Assembly: GCF_003072485.1 (NCBI RefSeq)
Contig: NZ_CP025989.1
Location: 630,001-662,000, forward strand
DNA length: 32,000 nt
Origin: Candidatus Fokinia solitaria
GTDB taxonomy: Bacteria; Pseudomonadota; Alphaproteobacteria; Rickettsiales; Midichloriaceae
Reading direction: 5' to 3'
A program made the translations under genes and the position numbers. Positions 2,481 to 26,032 of the stretch are shown here, in pieces. Position 1 is the first letter of the stretch; each line of letters begins with the position of its first letter. The notes under the pieces were generated by a model. That model had not been told where the DNA came from, made no database searches, and worked only from the letters and a program-made list of their open reading frames with translations.

Positions 2481-2605
2481 CACATTTTTCTTCCATTGAA
2501 TAAACAAAGCGCAATCTCAGCAAGCATCGTACGTACAACACCAATAAACGCATTGCAAAATCTGCTTTTATAGGACATAGTAATCATAAATCATGTTACT
2601 TTTAG

Positions 2606-3682
2606 ATGCAGATGCAGCAGTCATCACAAAATCAGGACTTGATAAGCAAGTACCACAAGGAAATAAAATTCTGCCAACAACAAGCAATTTTTCAGCAAAA
2701 ACAGGTAGAATTTTGTCAACAGCAGATACAATTTTATCAGGAGCAGATTAGCCTTCAACAGCGAGTAGTAAAAGATTATAAGCTACAAATAGATAGTGCA
2801 GAGCAACAAATGCAAGATCTTCATTCGCACATGCAGATGCTGCAAGAGCAAACATTACAACAGCAGCTTACTACATATTCTGATGTTTACCTTAGAGTAG
2901 TGCAGTTCTATATGTTCTTTATACGCGATGCAGAGTATCAGAATGCATATGCTATCAACTCGTACTTTGAAAGTGCCTGTAATGTGATATCTCCTGCTCT
3001 TTATCAACCTTATATGTTACAGGAATTACCTGATTATGTAGACCGTATTCGTGCCTCTTACGATCTAGACGATAACGAAGAGTTAGTTCTTTTTAATGAA
3101 TACACTGTTCTATTACATCAGATACAAGATACCGTATCTTCTTATGAAGATGAATCTGCAGTACGTCAGTATGCCGTTGCAATGTATGTCTTCTTTAGAG
3201 CTGCATGCGATTTCACTGATGAAGAACAACGACTTCCAGAAGAGATGTTGGAGACGATACGTGGATTTCGCAGTGAGCAAAATATGACTCAGATACTACA
3301 ACAGCAAATACAGCAAAATGATGTACAATTACTTCCTATAGAACCTCAGCAGCAGTTGATAATGCTTCAACAGTTAGAGCCTTCTTATCAGCAGGAAGTT
3401 TCTAGCAAACAGCAAAAGTTATCTGAGGATCAGCAGCAGCTATCTGAATATCAGCAGCGGTTATCCGAATATCAACAAGAATTGTCCGAACGTCGGGAGA
3501 GAGTATCTCAATTTCAACAACGACTATCCGAATATCAGCAAGAACAGGAGATAATACTTCAGCAACAAGCGCTTCAACAACAGGAAGGTGACGCTAATCA
3601 AGACGAAATTCCGGTACAATGTGGATTCGCAGCAGATATCGAGAATATATCCGATCACAACAGCATCCATGATGAGATCTAG
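2606..3682 (+). CDS. glutamine-rich heptad-repeat protein, paralog 1 (no recognised family)
   Basis: 358-aa ORF with no signal peptide or TM segment. N-terminal heptads (IKFCQQQ/AIFQQKQ/VEFCQQQ...), a conserved core shared with ORF 3789..5030, C-terminal heptads (QQxLSEY) and a shared acidic tail. The reading frame is maintained through all repeats. Confidence 0.75.
   Translation: MQMQQSSQNQDLISKYHKEIKFCQQQAIFQQKQVEFCQQQIQFYQEQISLQQRVVKDYKLQIDSAEQQMQDLHSHMQMLQEQTLQQQLTTYSDVYLRVVQFYMFFIRDAEYQNAYAINSYFESACNVISPALYQPYMLQELPDYVDRIRASYDLDDNEELVLFNEYTVLLHQIQDTVSSYEDESAVRQYAVAMYVFFRAACDFTDEEQRLPEEMLETIRGFRSEQNMTQILQQQIQQNDVQLLPIEPQQQLIMLQQLEPSYQQEVSSKQQKLSEDQQQLSEYQQRLSEYQQELSERRERVSQFQQRLSEYQQEQEIILQQQALQQQEGDANQDEIPVQCGFAADIENISDHNSIHDEI
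2663..2767 (+). repeat. in-frame 21-nt (heptad) repeats, about 5 units, N-terminal arm of paralog 1
   Basis: Protein units IKFCQQQ AIFQQKQ VEFCQQQ IQFYQEQ ISLQQRV read directly from the translation (aa 20-54). Confidence 0.7.
3410..3535 (+). repeat. in-frame 21-bp tandem repeat, 6 units, C-terminal arm of paralog 1
   Basis: Units start at 3410, 3431, 3452, 3473, 3494 and 3515. They encode QQKLSED QQQLSEY QQRLSEY QQELSER RERVSQF QQRLSEY. Confidence 0.85.
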
Positions 3683-3788
3683 TAATTGATATACAAGCAC
3701 CTTTTCTACAGCTTACGTTCGAAGTCGCATATTGCAAGAGGTGTTTTCGTGAGATATTGTTATAGTATATCAACTATATATCGCATAA

Positions 3789-5030
3789 ATGAAGGAATCG
3801 TCGCAGAACACTCAACAACATGAAATGACTGAGCTAAAAGTAGCAGAGCCATGGCGAAAGACTCTTCAATCTCAAGAAATTGTCTCACAGTTAGCATCTT
3901 TTTCTGAGGACGATATAGCTTTTTCTCAAAGCCGAGTACACTATTATCAAGAGCAAGTAGTTTTTTTGCAACAGCAAATAAGTTACTACCAACAGCAAGT
4001 AGAATTTACTGAAAAGCAAATAAGTCACCACCAACAGCAAGTAGAATTCACTGAAAGACAAATAAGTTACTACCAGCAACAAGTAAGCAACTTACAGCAG
4101 CAGGCGCAAGACTTTCACTCACACATGCAGATGCTACAAGAGCAAACATTGCAACAGACACTTGCTATATATTCCGATGTTTACCTTAGAATAGTGAAGC
4201 CCTATATGTCCTTTATGTGTCATAGAACAGAATTTCATCATCCACACGTTATCAGTGCGCACTTTAAAAGTGCTTGTAACATGATATCTCCTACTCTCTA
4301 TCAACCTTATATGTTACAGGAATTACCTAATTACATAGACCATATTCGTGCTTCTTACGATCTAGATGATAGCGAAGAGTTAGCTTTTTTTAATGAATAC
4401 ACTGCTCTATTACATCAGATACAAGATACTGTATCTTCTCATGAGGATGAATCTGCAGTACGTCAGTATGCTGTTGCAATGTACGTCTTCTTTAGAGCTA
4501 TATGCAATTTCACTGATGAAGAACAACGACCTTCAGAAGAGATGTTAGAGGCGATACATGAGTTTCGTAGCAAGCAAAGTATGACTCAGATGCTGCAACA
4601 GCAAGTGCACCAAAGTGATACACAATTGCTTCCTGTAGAACCTCAGCAGCAGTTGACAATGCTTCAACAGTTAGAGCCTTCTTATCAGCGGGAGATTTCT
4701 GAAAATCAGCAAACATTATCTGGATATCAGCAAGAGCTACTTTCACATCTGCAAGATGTATCTGAATATCAACGTGAATCATTCGAATGTCAACAGATGG
4801 TATCTCAATATCAACAACAACTGCCCGAATGTCAGCAAGAGTTATTTAGATATCAACAAACATTAGCTGAGTGTCAACGAGAATTGTCATATCGGCAAGA
4901 ACAAGTGCCTCAGCAACGAGTGCTTCAGCAGGAAGGTGACGCTAATCAAGATGAAATCCCGGTACAATGTGGATTCGCAGCAGATATCGAGAATATATCC
5001 GATCACAACAGCATCCACGATGAGATCTAG
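3789..5030 (+). CDS. glutamine-rich heptad-repeat protein, paralog 2 (no recognised family)
   Basis: 413-aa ORF 106 nt downstream of paralog 1 on the same strand, with the same architecture. The core is highly similar (for example 75 of 87 residues identical from SACN to DEEQR). The last 33 residues are identical to those of paralog 1. Confidence 0.75.
   Translation: MKESSQNTQQHEMTELKVAEPWRKTLQSQEIVSQLASFSEDDIAFSQSRVHYYQEQVVFLQQQISYYQQQVEFTEKQISHHQQQVEFTERQISYYQQQVSNLQQQAQDFHSHMQMLQEQTLQQTLAIYSDVYLRIVKPYMSFMCHRTEFHHPHVISAHFKSACNMISPTLYQPYMLQELPNYIDHIRASYDLDDSEELAFFNEYTALLHQIQDTVSSHEDESAVRQYAVAMYVFFRAICNFTDEEQRPSEEMLEAIHEFRSKQSMTQMLQQQVHQSDTQLLPVEPQQQLTMLQQLEPSYQREISENQQTLSGYQQELLSHLQDVSEYQRESFECQQMVSQYQQQLPECQQELFRYQQTLAECQRELSYRQEQVPQQRVLQQEGDANQDEIPVQCGFAADIENISDHNSIHDEI
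3936..4103 (+). repeat. in-frame heptad repeats (8 units), including a 42-bp tandem repeat x3 at 3975..4100
   Basis: Protein units VHYYQEQ VVFLQQQ ISYYQQQ VEFTEKQ ISHHQQQ VEFTERQ ISYYQQQ VSNLQQQ. The 42-bp DNA units start at 3975, 4017 and 4059 (caaataagt[tc]ac[tc]accaacagcaagtagaatt...). Confidence 0.85.
4707..4916 (+). repeat. in-frame 21-bp tandem repeat, 10 units, C-terminal arm of paralog 2
   Basis: Units every 21 nt from 4707. They encode QQTLSGY QQELLSH LQDVSEY QRESFEC QQMVSQY QQQLPEC QQELFRY QQTLAEC QRELSYR QEQVPQQ. The hydrophobic spacing L/F(4)-Y/C(7) is the 3-4 spacing of a coiled coil. Confidence 0.85.
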
Positions 5031-5302
5031 TAATTGATACGCTAATCGATACTCTATATTCATTACTAAAAATTTCATAATCTTCACTGTTTCTTGTGAT
5101 CATTTTATTACTGACAAATTAACAGTGTAACCTTGCTCTTCCATATCTTGTATACTTCTCAAGAATATGAAGGTAAGCGTGTATTTGCATCTCATAGCAA
5201 TACACTGCTACTCATCATACGACTCAGACATCTAAATATTTTAGCTGAAATCTCTATATCGCCATACTTTCACAAAAAGATGAATATATCTATTTTGTAG
5301 AA

Positions 5303-8300
5303 TTAATTCTTTTTAAAGAAATATTGACATAGTTTTGCTTCATCATCATACCTAATATATACTATCTCTTCATTTTTTAACTCTTCTAAGTTCTCATTAT
5401 TCAGATCATACTTTGACTTCGATTTCCATACTATGATGACGTTATTTTCGTTATCATGCGTAGCAATTCTTACATATGCGCCATCGTGTTTTCGGTTACT
5501 ATCTAAAAAAGATGATAACCTTTTCATGCTTTGAAAATCAGTGATAGGAAAAATATAGTCCTTCACTTTATCATAAGCATCTATTCTTTCTACAGATTCT
5601 ACTGTAATCCTTACTCCAAAATTATCTTTTCTTATTTCCACATTACAAACAATAATCTGCCCTTCGGCTAACAGATCTTTCTGCGCTATTAAAATTGCTT
5701 CATTAAAAATCGATACATCAAGAAAGCCAGTTTCGTCACATAACTGCATAAATGCGAACTTCCCTCCTTTGCCACTGCTAGACGAACGTACTTTCAACGA
5801 TGTAATGATACCTGCGACTTTTTTTGTGATATCTTTTTGCTCTTCATTTTCTATCTTAAATACTAGTTCTTCTATTTCCGATATCTGACTTACAAAAGAT
5901 CGTTGCAAATCCAATCTCCATATCTGAAGCGGATTGTGTAGTAAATAAAATCCAAGCGCTTGATATTCGAACATTGCACGTTCATTATCGTTAAGAGAAG
6001 ATGTTTTGATAAAATTTTCTAGCTCATCAATTGAATTTTTCTTTGGTAAGCTTTTTTTAAATAGACTATTCTGCTTCAAGTTAGCAATTGCCATTTCTGA
6101 GTGATACTCACTCTCCTTTATGAGATTTTCCACATTCTCCAATAGTTCTTTAATATTCGGATATAATTCAGCAAATGCGCATGCTTTGATCATTTGCTCC
6201 ATATTTCTCTTATTCAGTTCTTTATTTTTGATTCTATATATAAAATCTAATATCGATTTAAAGGTGCCATTTTTTTCCCTCTCTGCACATATTTCTTTTA
6301 CCAACTGACTGCTAACACCTTTTATCGCTTCTAATCCATACCTTATTTCATTACCTTCTATCATAAATTCCGAATAAGAAAAATTAATGGAAGGAGGTTT
6401 GATTTGAATTTGCAACAATCTTGCTTCATTACAATAAATAGCTAACTTATTGGTTTGCATGATATCGAGATTCATCAGTATACACAGAAACTCGATTGGA
6501 TAATGCGCTTTAAGATAAGCAGTTTGATAAGAGATGATAGAATACGCAGCAGCATGAGATTTATTAAAGCCGTAACTCGCGAACTTATTGACAGTATCGA
6601 AAATTTCTATTGCACTTTTTTCTTCGATACCATTTTTAACAGCATTTTCTATAAAAGTACTTTGATGTTTCGCCATTTCATTTTTATCCTTTTTTCCCAT
6701 CGCTCTTCTCAGCAAATCTGCTTCTCCTAGAGAATAGTTTGCGATCACTCGTGCTATTTCTATTACCTGCTCCTGATATATTATGATACCGTACGTATCC
6801 TTCAACACGTCAGCAATCCTAGGATGTATATACTCCACTGCTTCTAATCCATGCTTTCTTCTATTATACGATGGAATATTTGACATCGGCCCTGGTCTAT
6901 ATAATGAACTCAAAGCAATCAAATCATCTATACTATCTGGCTTCAGTCCCTTTATCGCTTCTTTCATACCAACGCCTTCAAACTGAAACACACCTACTGT
7001 CAGACCTTTTGTCAGCATTTCAAATGTCTTTACATCTGTAAGAGGTAAATTACTGATATCTATTTGAATACCTCTGTGCTGCTTTATGATATTGCATGTT
7101 TGCGCAATCACTGTTAGCGTTTTCAAGCCTAAAAAGTCGAACTTTACCAAACCAGCTAATTCTGTATATTTCATACTATATTGCACTAGTATCAAATCAG
7201 AATCCTGCGTTTTACATAACGGTACATCACCGAGTAGAGTAGTATCAGATATCACAACGCCTGCACTATGCATCGATATATGTCTATGCAATCCCTCAAG
7301 TTTTAATCCAATCTCTATTAATCTTCTTACGTCATCATCAGTTTTACTCATCTCTTGTAGACTTTTATCTATTGCTACAGCAGTAGCGAGATCTATAGGG
7401 TGCGCAGGATTGTTAGGTATCATTTTACATATTCTGTCCACAACACGATAAGGTATCTGCAAAACACGCCCTACATCTCGCAGTACAGCTCTTGGCTGTA
7501 ACTTACCAAACGTGATAATATGCGCAACTCTATCAGAGCCGTACTTTTTTTTTACGTATTCTATTACTCGATCACGTCCTAATTGACAAAAATCTACATC
7601 AATATCCGGCATACTTATACGAGCTGGATTAAGAAATCTTTCAAAAAGAAGATTAAATTTTATAGGATCTAATGCTGTAATATTCAAAACCCAAGCGACG
7701 ATTGAGCCTACCGCTGAACCACGTCCAGGACCTACCGCAATATCATTATCTCTACTCCAACGAATAAAGTCTGATACCACAAGAAAATACCCCGAAAATC
7801 CCATACTGCATATTACATCCAATTCACGCTGCAACCTTTCAAAGTATAACATCTTTGTCTCTTCCGTCATTTTTTCGACTTTTTCCTCTAAGCCTTTTAA
7901 AGTTCTCTGACGCAGTATCAGATCTTCTTGCGCACGCGAAGCAAAAGTAGGCAATCTTGGAGAAGATGACTGCGGCATAAACGAGCACTTTCGCGCAAGT
8001 GCTATTGTATTTTCTACTGCTTTCGGTAAGTCTGCAAAAAGACTCTGAAATTCATCATATGTTCTGAGAAATTCACCTTTTTGCACTGCTTTTCTATCTT
8101 TTGTAGCAATATAAGTACCATTACTTATGCACATCATCACATCACATGCCTCCGCATCAGATACACTCATATGAGTTGCAATACAACTTGCAACTATCGG
8201 TATGTGATTCAGAGAACAAAACGCAATAAAAGCGCTTTCCGCTGTATAAAATATGTTATCTTCAACTCTTGAAATCTCTATATAAAGTTCTGCACTACTT

Positions 8301-8863
8301 AATGAAGCTTTTAATTGAGTAATGATATTACCGATTGTTGCTTGCAACTCTTCATTTGTGCTGTTTAAACGGCATAAAAAATCTTTATCAGCTGTCCCCC
8401 AAAGTACTATTAAACCCTCACAGTATTCACTAATTTGACGTAAACATAAATTACATGGCACTTTATCTTCTATCGCCATTAAAGCAAATTCAGTTTCATC
8501 ATTCGCCTTTTCTACTCTCATATATAAGAGACTTGATAGAATCGTGAGATTTTTTACTCCTCTTTCATTAGTAGCGATGAGAACAATTTCTATTTCTGCG
8601 GCATCAGATACCACTTCATCAAGACGCACTTTCAATGTTAGTCCAGGAATATACTGAATACCATTTTTCTTCGCTAACAATGAGCATTCAAGCATTCCAA
8701 ATAAATCATTTCTATCTGTAATACAGAACGCCGGTATCTTATGTGTTTTACAAAATTTCACTACATCTTCTATTCTTATATTGCTTTCACCAATTGAGTA
8801 AGATGAGAATATTCGAAGAGGGATATAAAAATCTTTAAACATATATTGATCACACGTATTCAA
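5303..8863 (-). CDS. dnaE: DNA polymerase III alpha subunit
   Basis: 1186 aa with a PHP-type N-terminus. Contains GPGRGSAVGS, MPDIDVDFC and FNKSHAAAYSIISYQTAYLKAHYP motifs. Plus-strand ORFs inside it are antisense artefacts. Confidence 0.95.
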   Translation of the reverse strand: MNTCDQYMFKDFYIPLRIFSSYSIGESNIRIEDVVKFCKTHKIPAFCITDRNDLFGMLECSLLAKKNGIQYIPGLTLKVRLDEVVSDAAEIEIVLIATNERGVKNLTILSSLLYMRVEKANDETEFALMAIEDKVPCNLCLRQISEYCEGLIVLWGTADKDFLCRLNSTNEELQATIGNIITQLKASLSSAELYIEISRVEDNIFYTAESAFIAFCSLNHIPIVASCIATHMSVSDAEACDVMMCISNGTYIATKDRKAVQKGEFLRTYDEFQSLFADLPKAVENTIALARKCSFMPQSSSPRLPTFASRAQEDLILRQRTLKGLEEKVEKMTEETKMLYFERLQRELDVICSMGFSGYFLVVSDFIRWSRDNDIAVGPGRGSAVGSIVAWVLNITALDPIKFNLLFERFLNPARISMPDIDVDFCQLGRDRVIEYVKKKYGSDRVAHIITFGKLQPRAVLRDVGRVLQIPYRVVDRICKMIPNNPAHPIDLATAVAIDKSLQEMSKTDDDVRRLIEIGLKLEGLHRHISMHSAGVVISDTTLLGDVPLCKTQDSDLILVQYSMKYTELAGLVKFDFLGLKTLTVIAQTCNIIKQHRGIQIDISNLPLTDVKTFEMLTKGLTVGVFQFEGVGMKEAIKGLKPDSIDDLIALSSLYRPGPMSNIPSYNRRKHGLEAVEYIHPRIADVLKDTYGIIIYQEQVIEIARVIANYSLGEADLLRRAMGKKDKNEMAKHQSTFIENAVKNGIEEKSAIEIFDTVNKFASYGFNKSHAAAYSIISYQTAYLKAHYPIEFLCILMNLDIMQTNKLAIYCNEARLLQIQIKPPSINFSYSEFMIEGNEIRYGLEAIKGVSSQLVKEICAEREKNGTFKSILDFIYRIKNKELNKRNMEQMIKACAFAELYPNIKELLENVENLIKESEYHSEMAIANLKQNSLFKKSLPKKNSIDELENFIKTSSLNDNERAMFEYQALGFYLLHNPLQIWRLDLQRSFVSQISEIEELVFKIENEEQKDITKKVAGIITSLKVRSSSSGKGGKFAFMQLCDETGFLDVSIFNEAILIAQKDLLAEGQIIVCNVEIRKDNFGVRITVESVERIDAYDKVKDYIFPITDFQSMKRLSSFLDSNRKHDGAYVRIATHDNENNVIIVWKSKSKYDLNNENLEELKNEEIVYIRYDDEAKLCQYFFKKN

Positions 8864-21076: not shown

Positions 21077-21961
21077 ATGTTAAATAAAACAGCAATTTCT
21101 AATAGTGTAATAGACAAGCATTACGCGCATCATACATGTAACAGCATAGAATCTGCAATAGCAAGACCATTGATAAATTCTATGATGAATTGTGCACCAT
21201 CATTCGAATATTTGCGTAATGTTCTAAGAGATAATGCAATCCACGTATCACCAACAACATATCGTTATATTATGCCTACGCGCGTGGGCGATTATTCTGA
21301 TATTATATATTTGCACGGCCTAGATGGGCCAAATAATATCGCCCAATCACTGTATCAATTAGCTCTAGACGTAATAACACTTCCTGTGACCGTTGGAGGT
21401 GCGAACACAGCTGAACAAATTGCAATAAATCGTTCTTATATCTGCTGTGCTTATGTCTTCTTCCGAACATTCGCTGAGGACTTAGACAAGAAAAATACAA
21501 ACATGGAGGAAAGGTTAATATGGGATGTACAGCCATTTCGAAGGGCTCTGTACGATGGAGAGAGAGATTGTCCATTTGAATATCAGGGCCGTTGGCTTTA
21601 TGCATTGGATGAGCAACATCACACATCATCAAACGCAGTAGTACAACATCAGACACAGCAGCAAATACAACATCAGACACAGCAGCAAATACAACATCAG
21701 ACATCATCAGATGAGGAATTTGACGATATTAATATTAATACACCCTATAACTTCAACGCGCATCAAGATGACAGTCAGGTAGTACAGCAATACGAGGATG
21801 GTGTGGATATTAATAAAATCTGCTACTTCAATACATATCAAAATGACAGTCAGGTAGTACAGCAATACGAGGATAGTGTGGATATTAATAAAATCTGCTA
21901 CTTCAATACATATCAAAATGACAGTCAGATAGTACAGCAATACGAAGATGATAGCTTATAA
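21077..21961 (+). CDS. hypothetical repeat protein, possible distant member of the 2606/3789 family
   Basis: 294-aa ORF kept open through two different in-frame tandem repeats. The N-terminal 150 aa share SP..Y...M.....DY.D.I and YVFFR motifs at matching spacing with the core of the Q-rich paralogs. Confidence 0.65.
   Translation: MLNKTAISNSVIDKHYAHHTCNSIESAIARPLINSMMNCAPSFEYLRNVLRDNAIHVSPTTYRYIMPTRVGDYSDIIYLHGLDGPNNIAQSLYQLALDVITLPVTVGGANTAEQIAINRSYICCAYVFFRTFAEDLDKKNTNMEERLIWDVQPFRRALYDGERDCPFEYQGRWLYALDEQHHTSSNAVVQHQTQQQIQHQTQQQIQHQTSSDEEFDDININTPYNFNAHQDDSQVVQQYEDGVDINKICYFNTYQNDSQVVQQYEDSVDINKICYFNTYQNDSQIVQQYEDDSL
21644..21710 (+). repeat. 24-bp in-frame tandem repeat, about 2.8 copies
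   Basis: Units caacatcagacacagcagcaaata start at 21644, 21668 and 21692. They encode HQTQQQIQ repeats. Confidence 0.85.
21728..21957 (+). repeat. 75-bp in-frame tandem repeat, about 3 copies
   Basis: The motif [ga]atgacagtcag recurs at 21767, 21842 and 21917 (period exactly 75), encoding NDSQVVQQYEDSVDINKICYFNTYQ. A degenerate partial unit lies upstream. Confidence 0.9.
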
Positions 21962-22341: not shown

Positions 22342-22419
22342 TGGGGCGAATAACGGAACTCGAATCCGCGACCTTCGGTACCACAAACCGACGCTCTAAC
22401 CAACTGAGCTATATCCGCC
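22342..22419 (-). tRNA. tRNA-His (anticodon GUG) with encoded G-1 and CCA
   Basis: 78 nt on the minus strand: G(-1)-GCGGATA-TA-GCTC-AGTTGGTTA-GAGC-G-TCGGT-TTGTGGT-ACCGA-AGGTC-GCGGA-TTCGAGT-TCCGT-TATTCGC-C-CCA. The extra 5' G pairs with discriminator C73. Confidence 0.9.
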
Positions 22420-22669
22420 AACTTATAAAGGCGCAAGCATGCACCATACTTTGAAGCTTACAAAGCTTATAAAATAAAGTCTAATTCAATTTTCTGTTTT
22501 TCGAGTATATAGCATTCTTTCTATACAAAGACATTATATTGCGCCACTATATAATAATTCTTTTTAAGAAATAGTAATGCCAATATTTAATAATATTTAA
22601 TATAATAAATATATTCTCATGCTAAGATGATCGTATTGTTAATATTAGATAAAGTTGCTATATTTAATA

Positions 22670-23002
22670 ATGATTGAATATTTATTTTCTGATATGCAAC
22701 AAAAAACAAGAAAAACGTGGGGACTTGAAGTAGAAGCAGCTGCTATGTCTTTTAAAGAAGATGTGACGCCACAGTATCACAAGGTGCGCTGCTTAGCTAA
22801 AATGAGCAGAATGATGGATAGCCTCATGGCTACAATTCAAGTACCAAAACTGACCGAAGAGCAGAAGACGATACAATTCAATAAAATTAGAGTAAATTGC
22901 AATATTCCAAAAGTAGACGACTGCCTTGCTACGGTAGAAATTATTTCCTCAGCACAGGATTTTATCAAAGAGGACAATCACAAATACTCATTGCGAGCCT
23001 GA
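22670..23002 (+). CDS. hypothetical protein (weak call)
   Basis: 110 aa from the ATG at 22670 (the tracked ORF begins at TTG 22655). No recognisable family. Its stop codon overlaps the 3' end of the convergent 5S rRNA. Its last 16 codons are the duplicated segment, copy B. Confidence 0.35.
   Translation: MIEYLFSDMQQKTRKTWGLEVEAAAMSFKEDVTPQYHKVRCLAKMSRMMDSLMATIQVPKLTEEQKTIQFNKIRVNCNIPKVDDCLATVEIISSAQDFIKEDNHKYSLRA
22943..22990. repeat. copy B of the roughly 48-nt duplicated segment (abuts the 5S rRNA 3' end)
   Basis: atttcctcagcacaggattttatcaaagaggacaatcacaaatactca. It ends 7 nt from the 3' end of 5S rRNA. Confidence 0.7.
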
Positions 23003-23112
23003 CAACGACCTACTCTCACACGTCTTAAGACGCAATACAATCGGCGAAAAGGCTTTTCACTTCTGAGTTCGGAATGGGATCAGGTGTTTCATCCTCTCTA
23101 TAATCATCAGGC
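22998..23112 (-). rRNA. rrf: 5S ribosomal RNA
   Basis: The minus-strand sequence gcctgatgattatagagaggatgaaacacctgatcccattccgaactcagaagtgaaa...gagagtaggtcgttgtcagg matches the universal bacterial 5S consensus (CCCATTCCGAACTC, GAGAGTAGG). Ends are accurate to within a few nt. Confidence 0.9.
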
Positions 23113-23190
23113 TTGCAATAAGTACCTTAGTCTACAGCATAAGCTTTATTGATATCAAATAACAACAAAAGCTTATACATCAAAGAGATA

Positions 23191-23265
23191 GCAATATAAA
23201 AAAGCAAAATTAATAAGAAGTAATTTTACCACTGCATACGCCATAATAGCAACAGCAACAAAATC
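23191..23265 (-). promoter_or_regulatory. 3' arm of the 23S precursor processing stem (23S-5S spacer)
   Basis: Largely complementary to 25960..26032. Perfect blocks include gcaatataa, aagcaaaatta, gtaatttta and tacgc. Several mismatches become G-U pairs only when read as minus-strand RNA. Confidence 0.7.
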
Positions 23266-25959
<2,694 letters not shown>

Positions 25960-25960
<1 letters not shown>

Positions 25961-26032
25961 ATATTTTTTTGCTGGTATTATGCGTACACAGTAATAAAAT
26001 TACTCAACGATAATTTTGCTTGGTTATATTGC
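25960..26032 (-). promoter_or_regulatory. 5' arm of the 23S precursor processing stem (leader)
   Basis: The reverse complement, gcaatataaccaagcaaaattatcgttgagtaattttattactgtgtacgcataataccagc, aligns with 23191..23250 and continues toward the mature ends. This is the classic RNase III-type stem enclosing 23S. Confidence 0.7.

Follow-up and report, generated by a model that had tools for sequence, protein, structure and literature searches.

The locus considered here raises a simple question: what purpose is served by two tandem genes for glutamine-rich hypothetical proteins in Candidatus Fokinia solitaria, a symbiont of Paramecium belonging to the Midichloriaceae (Rickettsiales)? The genes, Fsol_00583 (paralog 1) and Fsol_00584 (paralog 2), lie between queA and dnaE in a 32,000-nt stretch of contig NZ_CP025989.1 (positions 630,001–662,000), which was analysed as a whole and is called the window below; coordinates refer to it unless stated otherwise. 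The preferred answer, to which a probability of only about 0.45 can be assigned, is that they belong to a genus-specific, expanding family of exported host-interaction proteins, in which a stalk formed by two coiled-coil arms would display a core domain and a disordered acidic tail would act as the export or targeting signal. An earlier note, made from the sequence of this DNA alone, had taken its source for an obligate intracellular alphaproteobacterium, and this is what F. solitaria is.

Both open reading frames (ORFs) of the earlier note, located on the same strand 106 nt apart (2606–3682, 358 aa, and 3789–5030, 413 aa), were recovered, and their products are 62% identical (BLASTP, E = 4e-139). 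The frame of paralog 1 contains in-frame ATG codons at 2606 and 2612, and the second one, used for the annotated 356-aa product, is probably the true start, because it is the annotated position and is supported by the family N-terminus M-[KQ]-x-S-S-Q and by the alignment of the start codons. Glutamine makes up 21% of paralog 1 and 18% of paralog 2, whereas 18 neighbouring ORFs average 3.8%, and the predicted isoelectric points (pI) are 4.3 (358-aa ORF product) and 4.7, respectively. The proteins had been described as free of signal peptides, of transmembrane segments and of any known family, and all of this held: the Kyte-Doolittle mean over 19 residues is at most 1.06, the N-termini are neither hydrophobic nor signal-peptide-like, and no Pfam or NCBIfam cut-off was reached. 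Any export would therefore be independent of the Sec pathway.

Each protein consists of an N-terminal arm (N-arm), a core, a C-terminal arm (C-arm) and a tail (Table 1). The N-arms are built of h-x-F/Y-x-Q-Q-Q heptads, of which paralog 1 has the five clean units counted before and paralog 2 has nine rather than eight; for the C-arms, the counts of six and ten QQxLSEY units stood unchanged. The canonical a/d spacing was found in the C-arm as proposed, but the N-arm follows an a/c/d pattern instead of the plain 3-4 one, which gives it a wide hydrophobic face. Strongly hydrophobic residues cluster at set positions of the 7-residue repeat in every one of the eight arms found in the four core-bearing family members (chi-square p from 1e-8 to 0.014), and no significant periodicity of this kind was detected within the cores (p = 0.38 and 0.68). 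The full-length AlphaFold2 (AF2) model contains two long confident helices, 2–107 and 247–327, with scores of the predicted local distance difference test (pLDDT) of up to 97 (88–97 over approximately residues 10–60 in the N-arm and above 90 over approximately 270–310 in the C-arm) and a poorly defined core between them. With their heptad periodicity and long AF2 helices, the arms belong to the alpha-helical coiled-coil class. Tandem Repeats Finder (TRF) located 21-bp repeats in both arms of paralog 1 (2702–2748 and 3410–3474) and a 42-bp repeat in the N-arm of paralog 2 (2.7 copies at 3973–4085, 87% matches).

Table 1 Features of the two paralogs and of a possible relative in the 32,000-nt window
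Feature	Locus tag	Coordinates	Strand	Description
Promoter-like element, paralog 1		2553..2581	+	TTGCAA, 17-nt spacer, CATAGT; -10 hexamer ends 30 nt before ATG 2612
Paralog 1	Fsol_00583	2612..3682 (ORF opens 2606)	+	Hypothetical protein; identity match from second ATG
N-arm, paralog 1		2606..2827	+	Start M-Q-Q-S-S-Q, then I/V-x-F/Y-x-Q-Q-Q heptads; from register, repeats and AF2 helix
Core, paralog 1		2828..3376	+	HMQMLQEQ ... MLQQL; non-repetitive, predicted all-helical
C-arm, paralog 1		3377..3577	+	Six QQxLSEY heptads, a/d spacing; AF2 helix 247–327
Acidic tail, paralog 1		3578..3682	+	34 aa QQEGDANQDEIPVQCGFAADIENISDHNSIHDEI plus stop codon
Promoter-like element, paralog 2		3732..3760	+	TTGCAA, 17-nt spacer, TATTGT; -10 hexamer ends 28 nt before ATG 3789
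Paralog 2	Fsol_00584	3789..5030	+	Hypothetical protein; identical to annotated product
N-arm, paralog 2		3789..4121	+	Non-repetitive leader of ~40 aa, then nine heptads
Core, paralog 2		4122..4673	+	Homologous to core of paralog 1
C-arm, paralog 2		4674..4925	+	Ten heptads
Acidic tail, paralog 2		4926..5030	+	Same 34 aa QQEGDANQDEIPVQCGFAADIENISDHNSIHDEI plus stop codon
Possible relative	Fsol_00600	21077..21961	+	294 aa, singleton ORFan, 10% Gln; no Pfam match

The core of about 190 aa (HMQMLQEQ ... MLQQLEPSYQ), which the earlier note considered conserved and private, is 75% identical between the paralogs, and that of paralog 1 is approximately 62% identical to the cores found in the sister species, Fokinia crypta. 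Its privacy was borne out at the sequence level: when 1.84 billion representatives were searched exhaustively with an HMMER profile, a single cluster was returned, from F. crypta, and a full-length search of 5.8 billion clusters gave nothing beyond the F. solitaria pair and a single protein of F. crypta. PHROGs, PADLOC, Pfam and NCBIfam produced coiled-coil noise only, far below their cut-offs (sub-threshold PHROG matches at E ~1e-3), the core profile found nothing below E = 0.1 among Protein Data Bank (PDB) sequences, and the scanned metagenome contigs contained no family match. Genome contigs scanned with core peptides and with a degenerate DNA pattern of the tail gave no match either, Fokinia genomes being apparently absent or masked in that collection. 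A housekeeping family matching the core, which the earlier note had named as a finding that would refute its proposal, did not appear in these searches. The separate AF2 model of the core, computed from an alignment of three sequences, shows about seven helices (pLDDT 64, predicted template modelling score 0.56), and its best Foldseek match among PDB structures has E = 1.7, so that the expectation of no known fold holds as far as a model of moderate confidence can be trusted.

The gap between queA and dnaE contains five genes without a Pfam domain in F. crypta (CP110343.1, 705896–726981, designated L001; family genes at L001 6179–15099), compared to two in F. solitaria. Fc441 and Fc361 are paralogs with a mutual identity of 69% and have both the core and the tail. 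Fc506 and Fc624 are devoid of the core and carry 11-aa acidic repeats (DEDEQLAVQRD) or 37-aa repeats, followed by the family tail. Fc709 is tail-less and has a different, unique N-terminal domain of 400 aa, for which no PDB or Pfam match was found, and then a Gln-rich and Lys/Glu-rich coiled coil. The family tail is thus present on four F. crypta proteins with three types of body, namely core-bearing, core-deleted (Fc506) and unrelated (Fc624). In Fc506, the core-entry motif (SQQxIQEIQLxxQxLQEQNLQ) is directly joined to the core-exit motif (LEPQxQLQxLQQ), each of them outscoring all 1000 shuffles, and because the one runs straight into the other, this protein looks like a derivative from which the core was lost. 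The constant parts of the family would accordingly be the promoter, the N-terminus, the Gln-rich arms and the tail, with the core as one of several bodies. The view of the core as the constant module displayed by variable arms was therefore correct as to its conservation but has to be extended, since the termini are also constant, even on the core-less proteins of F. crypta.

Between the species, the proportions of non-synonymous (pN) and synonymous (pS) differences in the core are 0.18–0.22 and 0.64–0.74 (saturated), corresponding to a ratio of substitution rates (dN/dS) of 0.11–0.16. Because the ratio has this value with synonymous sites saturated, the genes are, judged by sequence comparison, real, functional and under purifying selection. 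The reading frames are intact in both species, and the sister species has kept and expanded the family, which is the opposite of the frameshifted or absent copies that had been named as evidence against the proposal. Within species, pS is approximately 0.25 in the core and approximately 0.15 in the tail, where pN is 0 in both species, and reaches 0.44–0.91 in the N-arm. This comparison agrees with the original suggestion of rapidly evolving arms, which have changed more quickly than the core, and the TRF results trace their differences in copy number to tandem repeats in the DNA. The likeness of core and tail within each species fits lineage-specific duplication or gene conversion, with the arms changing by repeat gain and loss. 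Arm turnover proceeds via 21-, 33-, 42- and 111-bp tandem repeats across both species, some of them 98% identical; the arrays of Fc506 and Fc624 are young (33 bp in 8 copies; 111 bp in 3.4 copies at 98% identity), and F. crypta also holds a 12-copy 21-bp array. Additionally, a 149-bp direct repeat (2.0 copies, 89% matches; L001 8133–8426) extends from the 3' end of Fc709 to the region upstream of Fc441 and was perhaps left behind by the tandem duplication from which the F. crypta array arose. Proline occurs at a fixed position in several C-arm heptads (QQIPEYQ, QQLPECQ; Fs584 aa 340–350, Fc441 aa 300–370). Long antisense ORFs (up to 228 aa) are found within the Gln-rich genes, in the window at 4510–4782 and 3891–4082 and in F. 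crypta at L001 14423–15109 and 12533–13003 (all on the minus strand). The best explanation for them is that CAA/CAG-rich repeats keep the opposite strand free of stop codons, and not that they are genes.

The termini are shared by proteins with different bodies: all seven family members begin with M-[KQ]-x-S-[SP]-x, and six of the seven end with VQC[GS]F-x6-[IV]S-x(2-3)-N-x(1-2)-HDE[IF]. The acidic tail is identical in the two F. solitaria paralogs, as had been noticed, its length being 34 rather than 33 aa, and its DNA differs between them at three synonymous and no non-synonymous positions. It is predicted to be disordered (pLDDT below 50). The last 30 aa carry a net charge of -8 in both F. 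solitaria proteins and of -5 to -8 across the tails; over the last 50 aa, the charge lies between -8 and -16, compared with -3 to +9 for 17 housekeeping controls, from which the tails also differ in the content of the residues KHPMWC (6–10% against 19% over the last 50 residues). Among the traits of type I secretion system (T1SS) signals, only this low KHPMWC content and the acidity stand out against the controls. A search with a profile of the tail alone in the 5.8-billion-cluster database listed 19 candidates, none with E ≤ 10, the profile being too short for a database of this size.

Several eukaryotic short motifs were considered for the tail-bearing proteins and rejected. An HDEL-type endoplasmic reticulum retrieval signal ([KRHQSA]-[DENQ]-E-L) does not apply, as the termini HDEI and HDEF have the wrong last residue and the symbiont is cytosolic and not enclosed in a vacuole; a mimic of the CAP-Gly-binding EEY/F terminus fails on the terminal Ile of the F. 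solitaria proteins; and the candidate LC3-interacting region (LIR) sites fall within predicted helices. At the DNA level, both tail-bearing genes of F. solitaria end with the double stop TAG TAA (second stop of paralog 1 at 3683–3685), three of the four tail-bearing F. crypta genes end with TAG TAG, and Fc624 reads TAG TGG. The F. solitaria paralogs remain identical for approximately 12 nt beyond the stop (TAGTAATTGATA; 3683–3694 and 5031–5042), which indicates that the duplication took in everything between the promoter and a point slightly past the stop codon.

The promoter-like element TTGMAM-17/18-YATWRT is located upstream of five of the seven family genes and ends 28–37 nt before the start codon, and a pattern scan found it in just 1.6% of random 120-nt windows. 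The element of paralog 1 scores 8/12 in a generic consensus scan and was hence not flagged there, and a general search of the region for promoters and terminators yielded no more sites than shuffled sequence did. A CtrA box was also tried as a family element and discarded, TTAA-N7-TTAA being clear only upstream of Fc709 and present as half-matches at the other family genes. The Fc709 copy (TTAATTTTTAATTAA) lies directly upstream of the gene (L001 6130–6178).

As to the shape of the proteins, the N-arm and C-arm may form a hairpin stalk with the core at its tip and both termini at its base. This model is suggested by the two long, confidently modelled arm helices, by the fact that arm lengths co-vary, by the core-deleted Fc506, whose adjoining entry and exit motifs would be expected of a core inserted at the tip of a hairpin, and by the nature of the Foldseek matches. 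The N-arm/C-arm lengths are 63/73, 70/90, 49/62 and 95/100 aa (r = 0.95, n = 4, the proteins not being independent), and within each species a longer N-arm goes with a longer C-arm. Foldseek comparison of the full-length model with the PDB gave nothing below E = 3e-3 and query-normalised template modelling scores below 0.4; the best of these non-significant matches are all antiparallel coiled-coil hairpins, namely the MukB elbow, an Smc arm fragment, the dynein stalk, in a match that includes its microtubule-binding domain, and a chemoreceptor. In the dynein stalk, the SMC/MukB arms and the chemoreceptor hairpin, as would be the case here, two long matched helices flank a small helical domain. 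Unlike them, the Fokinia proteins have no ATPase head, hinge, HAMP domain or signalling tip, and the resemblance is an analogy of shape and not of membership. No Walker A motif is present in the family proteins, which lack the ABC-type ATPase head with Walker A/B motifs and the hinge that define SMC, MukB and JetC, and the sub-threshold hidden Markov model matches to these families (12–18 bits against cut-offs of 567–729) cover the coiled-coil region only.

According to the preferred reading, each gene would be driven by its own sigma-70-like promoter and would give a soluble, very acidic, Gln-rich coiled-coil protein that is exported into the Paramecium cytoplasm and acts on host components there. 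Antiparallel pairing of the helices of both arms would produce a stalk of approximately 10–12 nm, the helical core of about 190 aa would serve as the binding module at its far tip, and the termini would lie together at the base, where the disordered tail (...VQC[GS]F...S..N..HDE[IF]-COOH) would act as an uncleaved C-terminal export or targeting signal. Four observations lead to this proposal. First, the family is restricted to one genus and shows tandem expansion and architectural shuffling in a shrinking genome, that of F. solitaria (837 kb) being the smallest reported for Rickettsiales as of January 2018 (PMC5905368). Second, an acidic disordered C-terminal motif common to different bodies is under strong purifying selection. 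Third, a Sec signal is absent. Fourth, a free-cytosolic lifestyle goes with retained secretion systems: F. solitaria lies naked in the cortical cytoplasm of Paramecium, among trichocysts (PMC4701390), and has no Krebs cycle, lipopolysaccharide (LPS) synthesis, flagella or pili, while multiple secretion systems are reportedly kept (PMC5905368). The comparative data strengthen the reading of the proteins as putative secreted effectors.

Among the possible export routes, a T1SS would be the best stylistic fit, since the Rickettsiales substrates of this system are acidic and repeat-bearing and have an uncleaved C-terminal signal (PMC3417381, PMC10225607). The closest analogues are Ehrlichia TRP32, TRP47, TRP75 and TRP120 and the Orientia Ank proteins, which are likewise lineage-specific, strongly acidic and without signal peptides, contain internal tandem repeats varying in number and sequence between paralogs and species, have a C-terminal region thought to be an uncleaved export signal, and belong to obligate intracellular Rickettsiales. 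The Fokinia proteins share the acidic pI (4.3–4.7) and the tandem repeats (21/42 bp in F. solitaria, 21/33/111 bp in F. crypta). However, full-length and core-profile searches, which return Fokinia only, revealed no homology to TRP or Ank substrates. Moreover, the TRP repeats are Ser/Glu-rich and disordered, whereas those of Fokinia are Gln-rich coiled-coil heptads (with 11-aa acidic repeats in F. crypta); the Fokinia tail is sharply conserved family-wide; and the host here is a ciliate, in whose cytosol the bacterium lies free. RTX exoproteins resemble the family in being acidic and repeat-containing with a C-terminal signal, but they differ in their GGxGxD repeats: a regular expression for the nonapeptide GGxGxDxUx had no match in any of the seven family proteins, and the proteins have only three Gly residues each.

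A type IV secretion system (T4SS) is near-universal across Rickettsiales (PMC10847448) and could offer another route. The signal of VirB/D4-type (rvh) substrates, a positive or hydrophobic C-terminus, was not found, the net charge over the last 30 aa being -8. The E-block effectors of the Dot/Icm systems of Legionella and Coxiella combine coiled coils with a disordered Glu/Asp-rich C-terminus and show lineage-specific expansion, as does the family described here, but have no homology to it; Dot/Icm (type IVB) is not known from Rickettsiales, which use the rvh type IVA system. By analogy, the family would function most like repeat effectors such as the Ehrlichia TRPs and be shaped like stalk-and-tip coiled coils, and it is a member of neither group.

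A number of points weigh against the exported, stalk-forming proteins proposed above. The arm-length correlation rests on four related proteins, and for the core, the model reaches no more than moderate confidence (pLDDT 64). The prolines of several C-arm heptads (IPEY, LPEC) are unusual within a continuous coiled coil, and the model offers no explanation for them. As for the tail, its LDAVTSIF content in the last 50 residues (44–60%) falls mostly within the 38–56% reported for TRPs, but the 17 housekeeping controls average 52%, and the rule thus fails to separate the two groups. One Cys and one His are among the conserved residues of the tail, and both are said to occur only rarely in T1SS signals. 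Substrates of VirB/D4-type systems typically have positively charged C-termini, although this is a loose criterion, and the acidic tail is the opposite. Finally, a history of duplication and gene conversion, and not function, could account for part of the likeness of the termini.

The first alternative is that the proteins stay inside the bacterium as structural or scaffolding coiled coils, for instance as a polar organiser, a division factor or a nucleoid-associated filament, with the tail recruiting a bacterial partner. The missing signal peptide, the weak sub-threshold matches to the arms of SMC, MukB and JetC and the housekeeping neighbours queA and dnaE agree with this, and acidic C-terminal peptides with a final hydrophobic residue are a common bacterial device for partner docking, as in the tail of SSB. 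Such scaffolds, however, are usually single-copy and family- or order-wide, whereas this family is limited to one genus, differs in copy number (two against five) and body architecture between sister species and turns over by repeat expansion; it has no ATPase head, Walker motif or other known domain, and a Gln content of 18–21% beside a neighbourhood mean of 3.8% appears foreign to a bacterial proteome. A purely intrabacterial role is therefore considered unlikely; if it were nevertheless true, the proteins would constitute an orphan structural family of local interest.

In the second alternative, the proteins are exported but stay attached to the bacterium, their Gln-rich coiled coils self-assembling into a fibrillar coat for cortex positioning or shielding from autophagy. 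Transmission electron microscopy (TEM) of F. solitaria showed a narrow rim free of host ribosomes with fine fibrils inside, as well as a fibrillar tail, around naked cytoplasmic bacteria that were frequently seen in autolysosomes (PMC4701390), and such a rim and trailing tail could correspond to the coat. The long coiled coils, the wide a/c/d face of the N-arm, suggestive of contacts with at least two other helices, the multi-copy state of the family and the absence of flagella and pili in F. solitaria also speak in its favour. But this argument is purely correlative, the fibrils were ascribed to host actin by the authors (PMC4701390), and an anchoring module is not evident in the proteins, which makes the coat improbable. 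A bolder version, and a distinct long shot, is a cassette-like effector system, in which a conserved promoter, an N-terminal hexapeptide and a new acidic C-terminal signal surround interchangeable bodies and the Gln-rich members, for which this signal would direct export, self-assemble into the coat. If it were true, the symbiont would build itself a shell resembling a cytoskeleton, which would hold it in place between the trichocysts or protect it from the autophagy of the host.

There is very little room for non-functional ORFs, whether decaying pseudogenes, repeat-generated frames or remnants of a phage or mobile element. The annotation as merely hypothetical proteins, the long opposite-strand frames opened by Gln-codon repeats and the weak PHROG matches (E ~1e-3) could be cited for them. 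The selection analysis has already refuted most of this reading, given intact frames in both species, the low dN/dS of the core and a tail without non-synonymous changes; in addition, conservation extends to the promoter-like elements, the matches in PHROG, PADLOC and Pfam are coiled-coil noise far under the cut-offs, and inspection of the genes neighbouring the paralogs and the F. crypta locus revealed no integrase, transposase or phage genes. Capture of a Gln-rich coiled-coil gene from a eukaryote by horizontal transfer, or mimicry of one, is hardly credible: the composition is eukaryote-like and the symbiont lives inside a ciliate, but full-length and exhaustive core-profile searches give no eukaryotic or other relative, the promoters are of bacterial type, introns are absent, and the GC content of the paralog region (0.37–0.39) is only slightly above that of most neighbouring sequence windows (0.32–0.39).

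What appears to be new here is a genus-restricted family with an uncharacterised core and a sharply defined candidate signal, the general kind of protein being already known. Almost nothing is known of how protist-dwelling Rickettsiales communicate with their hosts, and a genome without Krebs cycle, LPS synthesis and flagella still keeps, and that of the sister species expands, a private Gln-rich family under purifying selection. The paralogs and their relatives are thus prime candidates for symbiosis factors. Their common tail is a concrete candidate for an export or targeting signal that could be used to list further substrates in Fokinia genomes, and the putative stalk-plus-tip design, with natural core-deleted and core-swapped variants, would be a simple system for studying the diversification of an effector family.

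A third, very divergent relative may be encoded elsewhere in the window. Residues 56–155 of Fsol_00600 are collinear with the middle of the core (ISPxxY...DYxDxI...LD...RxY...YVFFR...FR), and the similarity reaches E = 0.001 by BLASTP and z = 5.0–7.6 by Smith-Waterman alignment with all four cores (1000 shuffles). The hhalign comparison gave E = 0.0095 with a probability of only 4%, and because of this low probability the link is tentative. The C-terminus of Fsol_00600 carries three acidic tandem repeats, ending with SQIVQQYEDDSL.

The immediate neighbours of the paralog pair are queA (1395–2480) and dnaE (5303–8863, minus strand), and the surroundings otherwise consist of housekeeping genes, including lgt, a pyrH-like kinase gene, nuoG, nuoD, metG, uvrD and a 23S-5S rRNA pair. 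The 23S rRNA (23255–25970) and 5S rRNA (22997–23111) genes are clustered with tRNA-His at 22342–25970 on the minus strand, and there is no 16S rRNA gene in the 32-kb window, a split arrangement typical of Rickettsiales. A gene for a CtrA/OmpR-type response regulator is located at 30287–31048.

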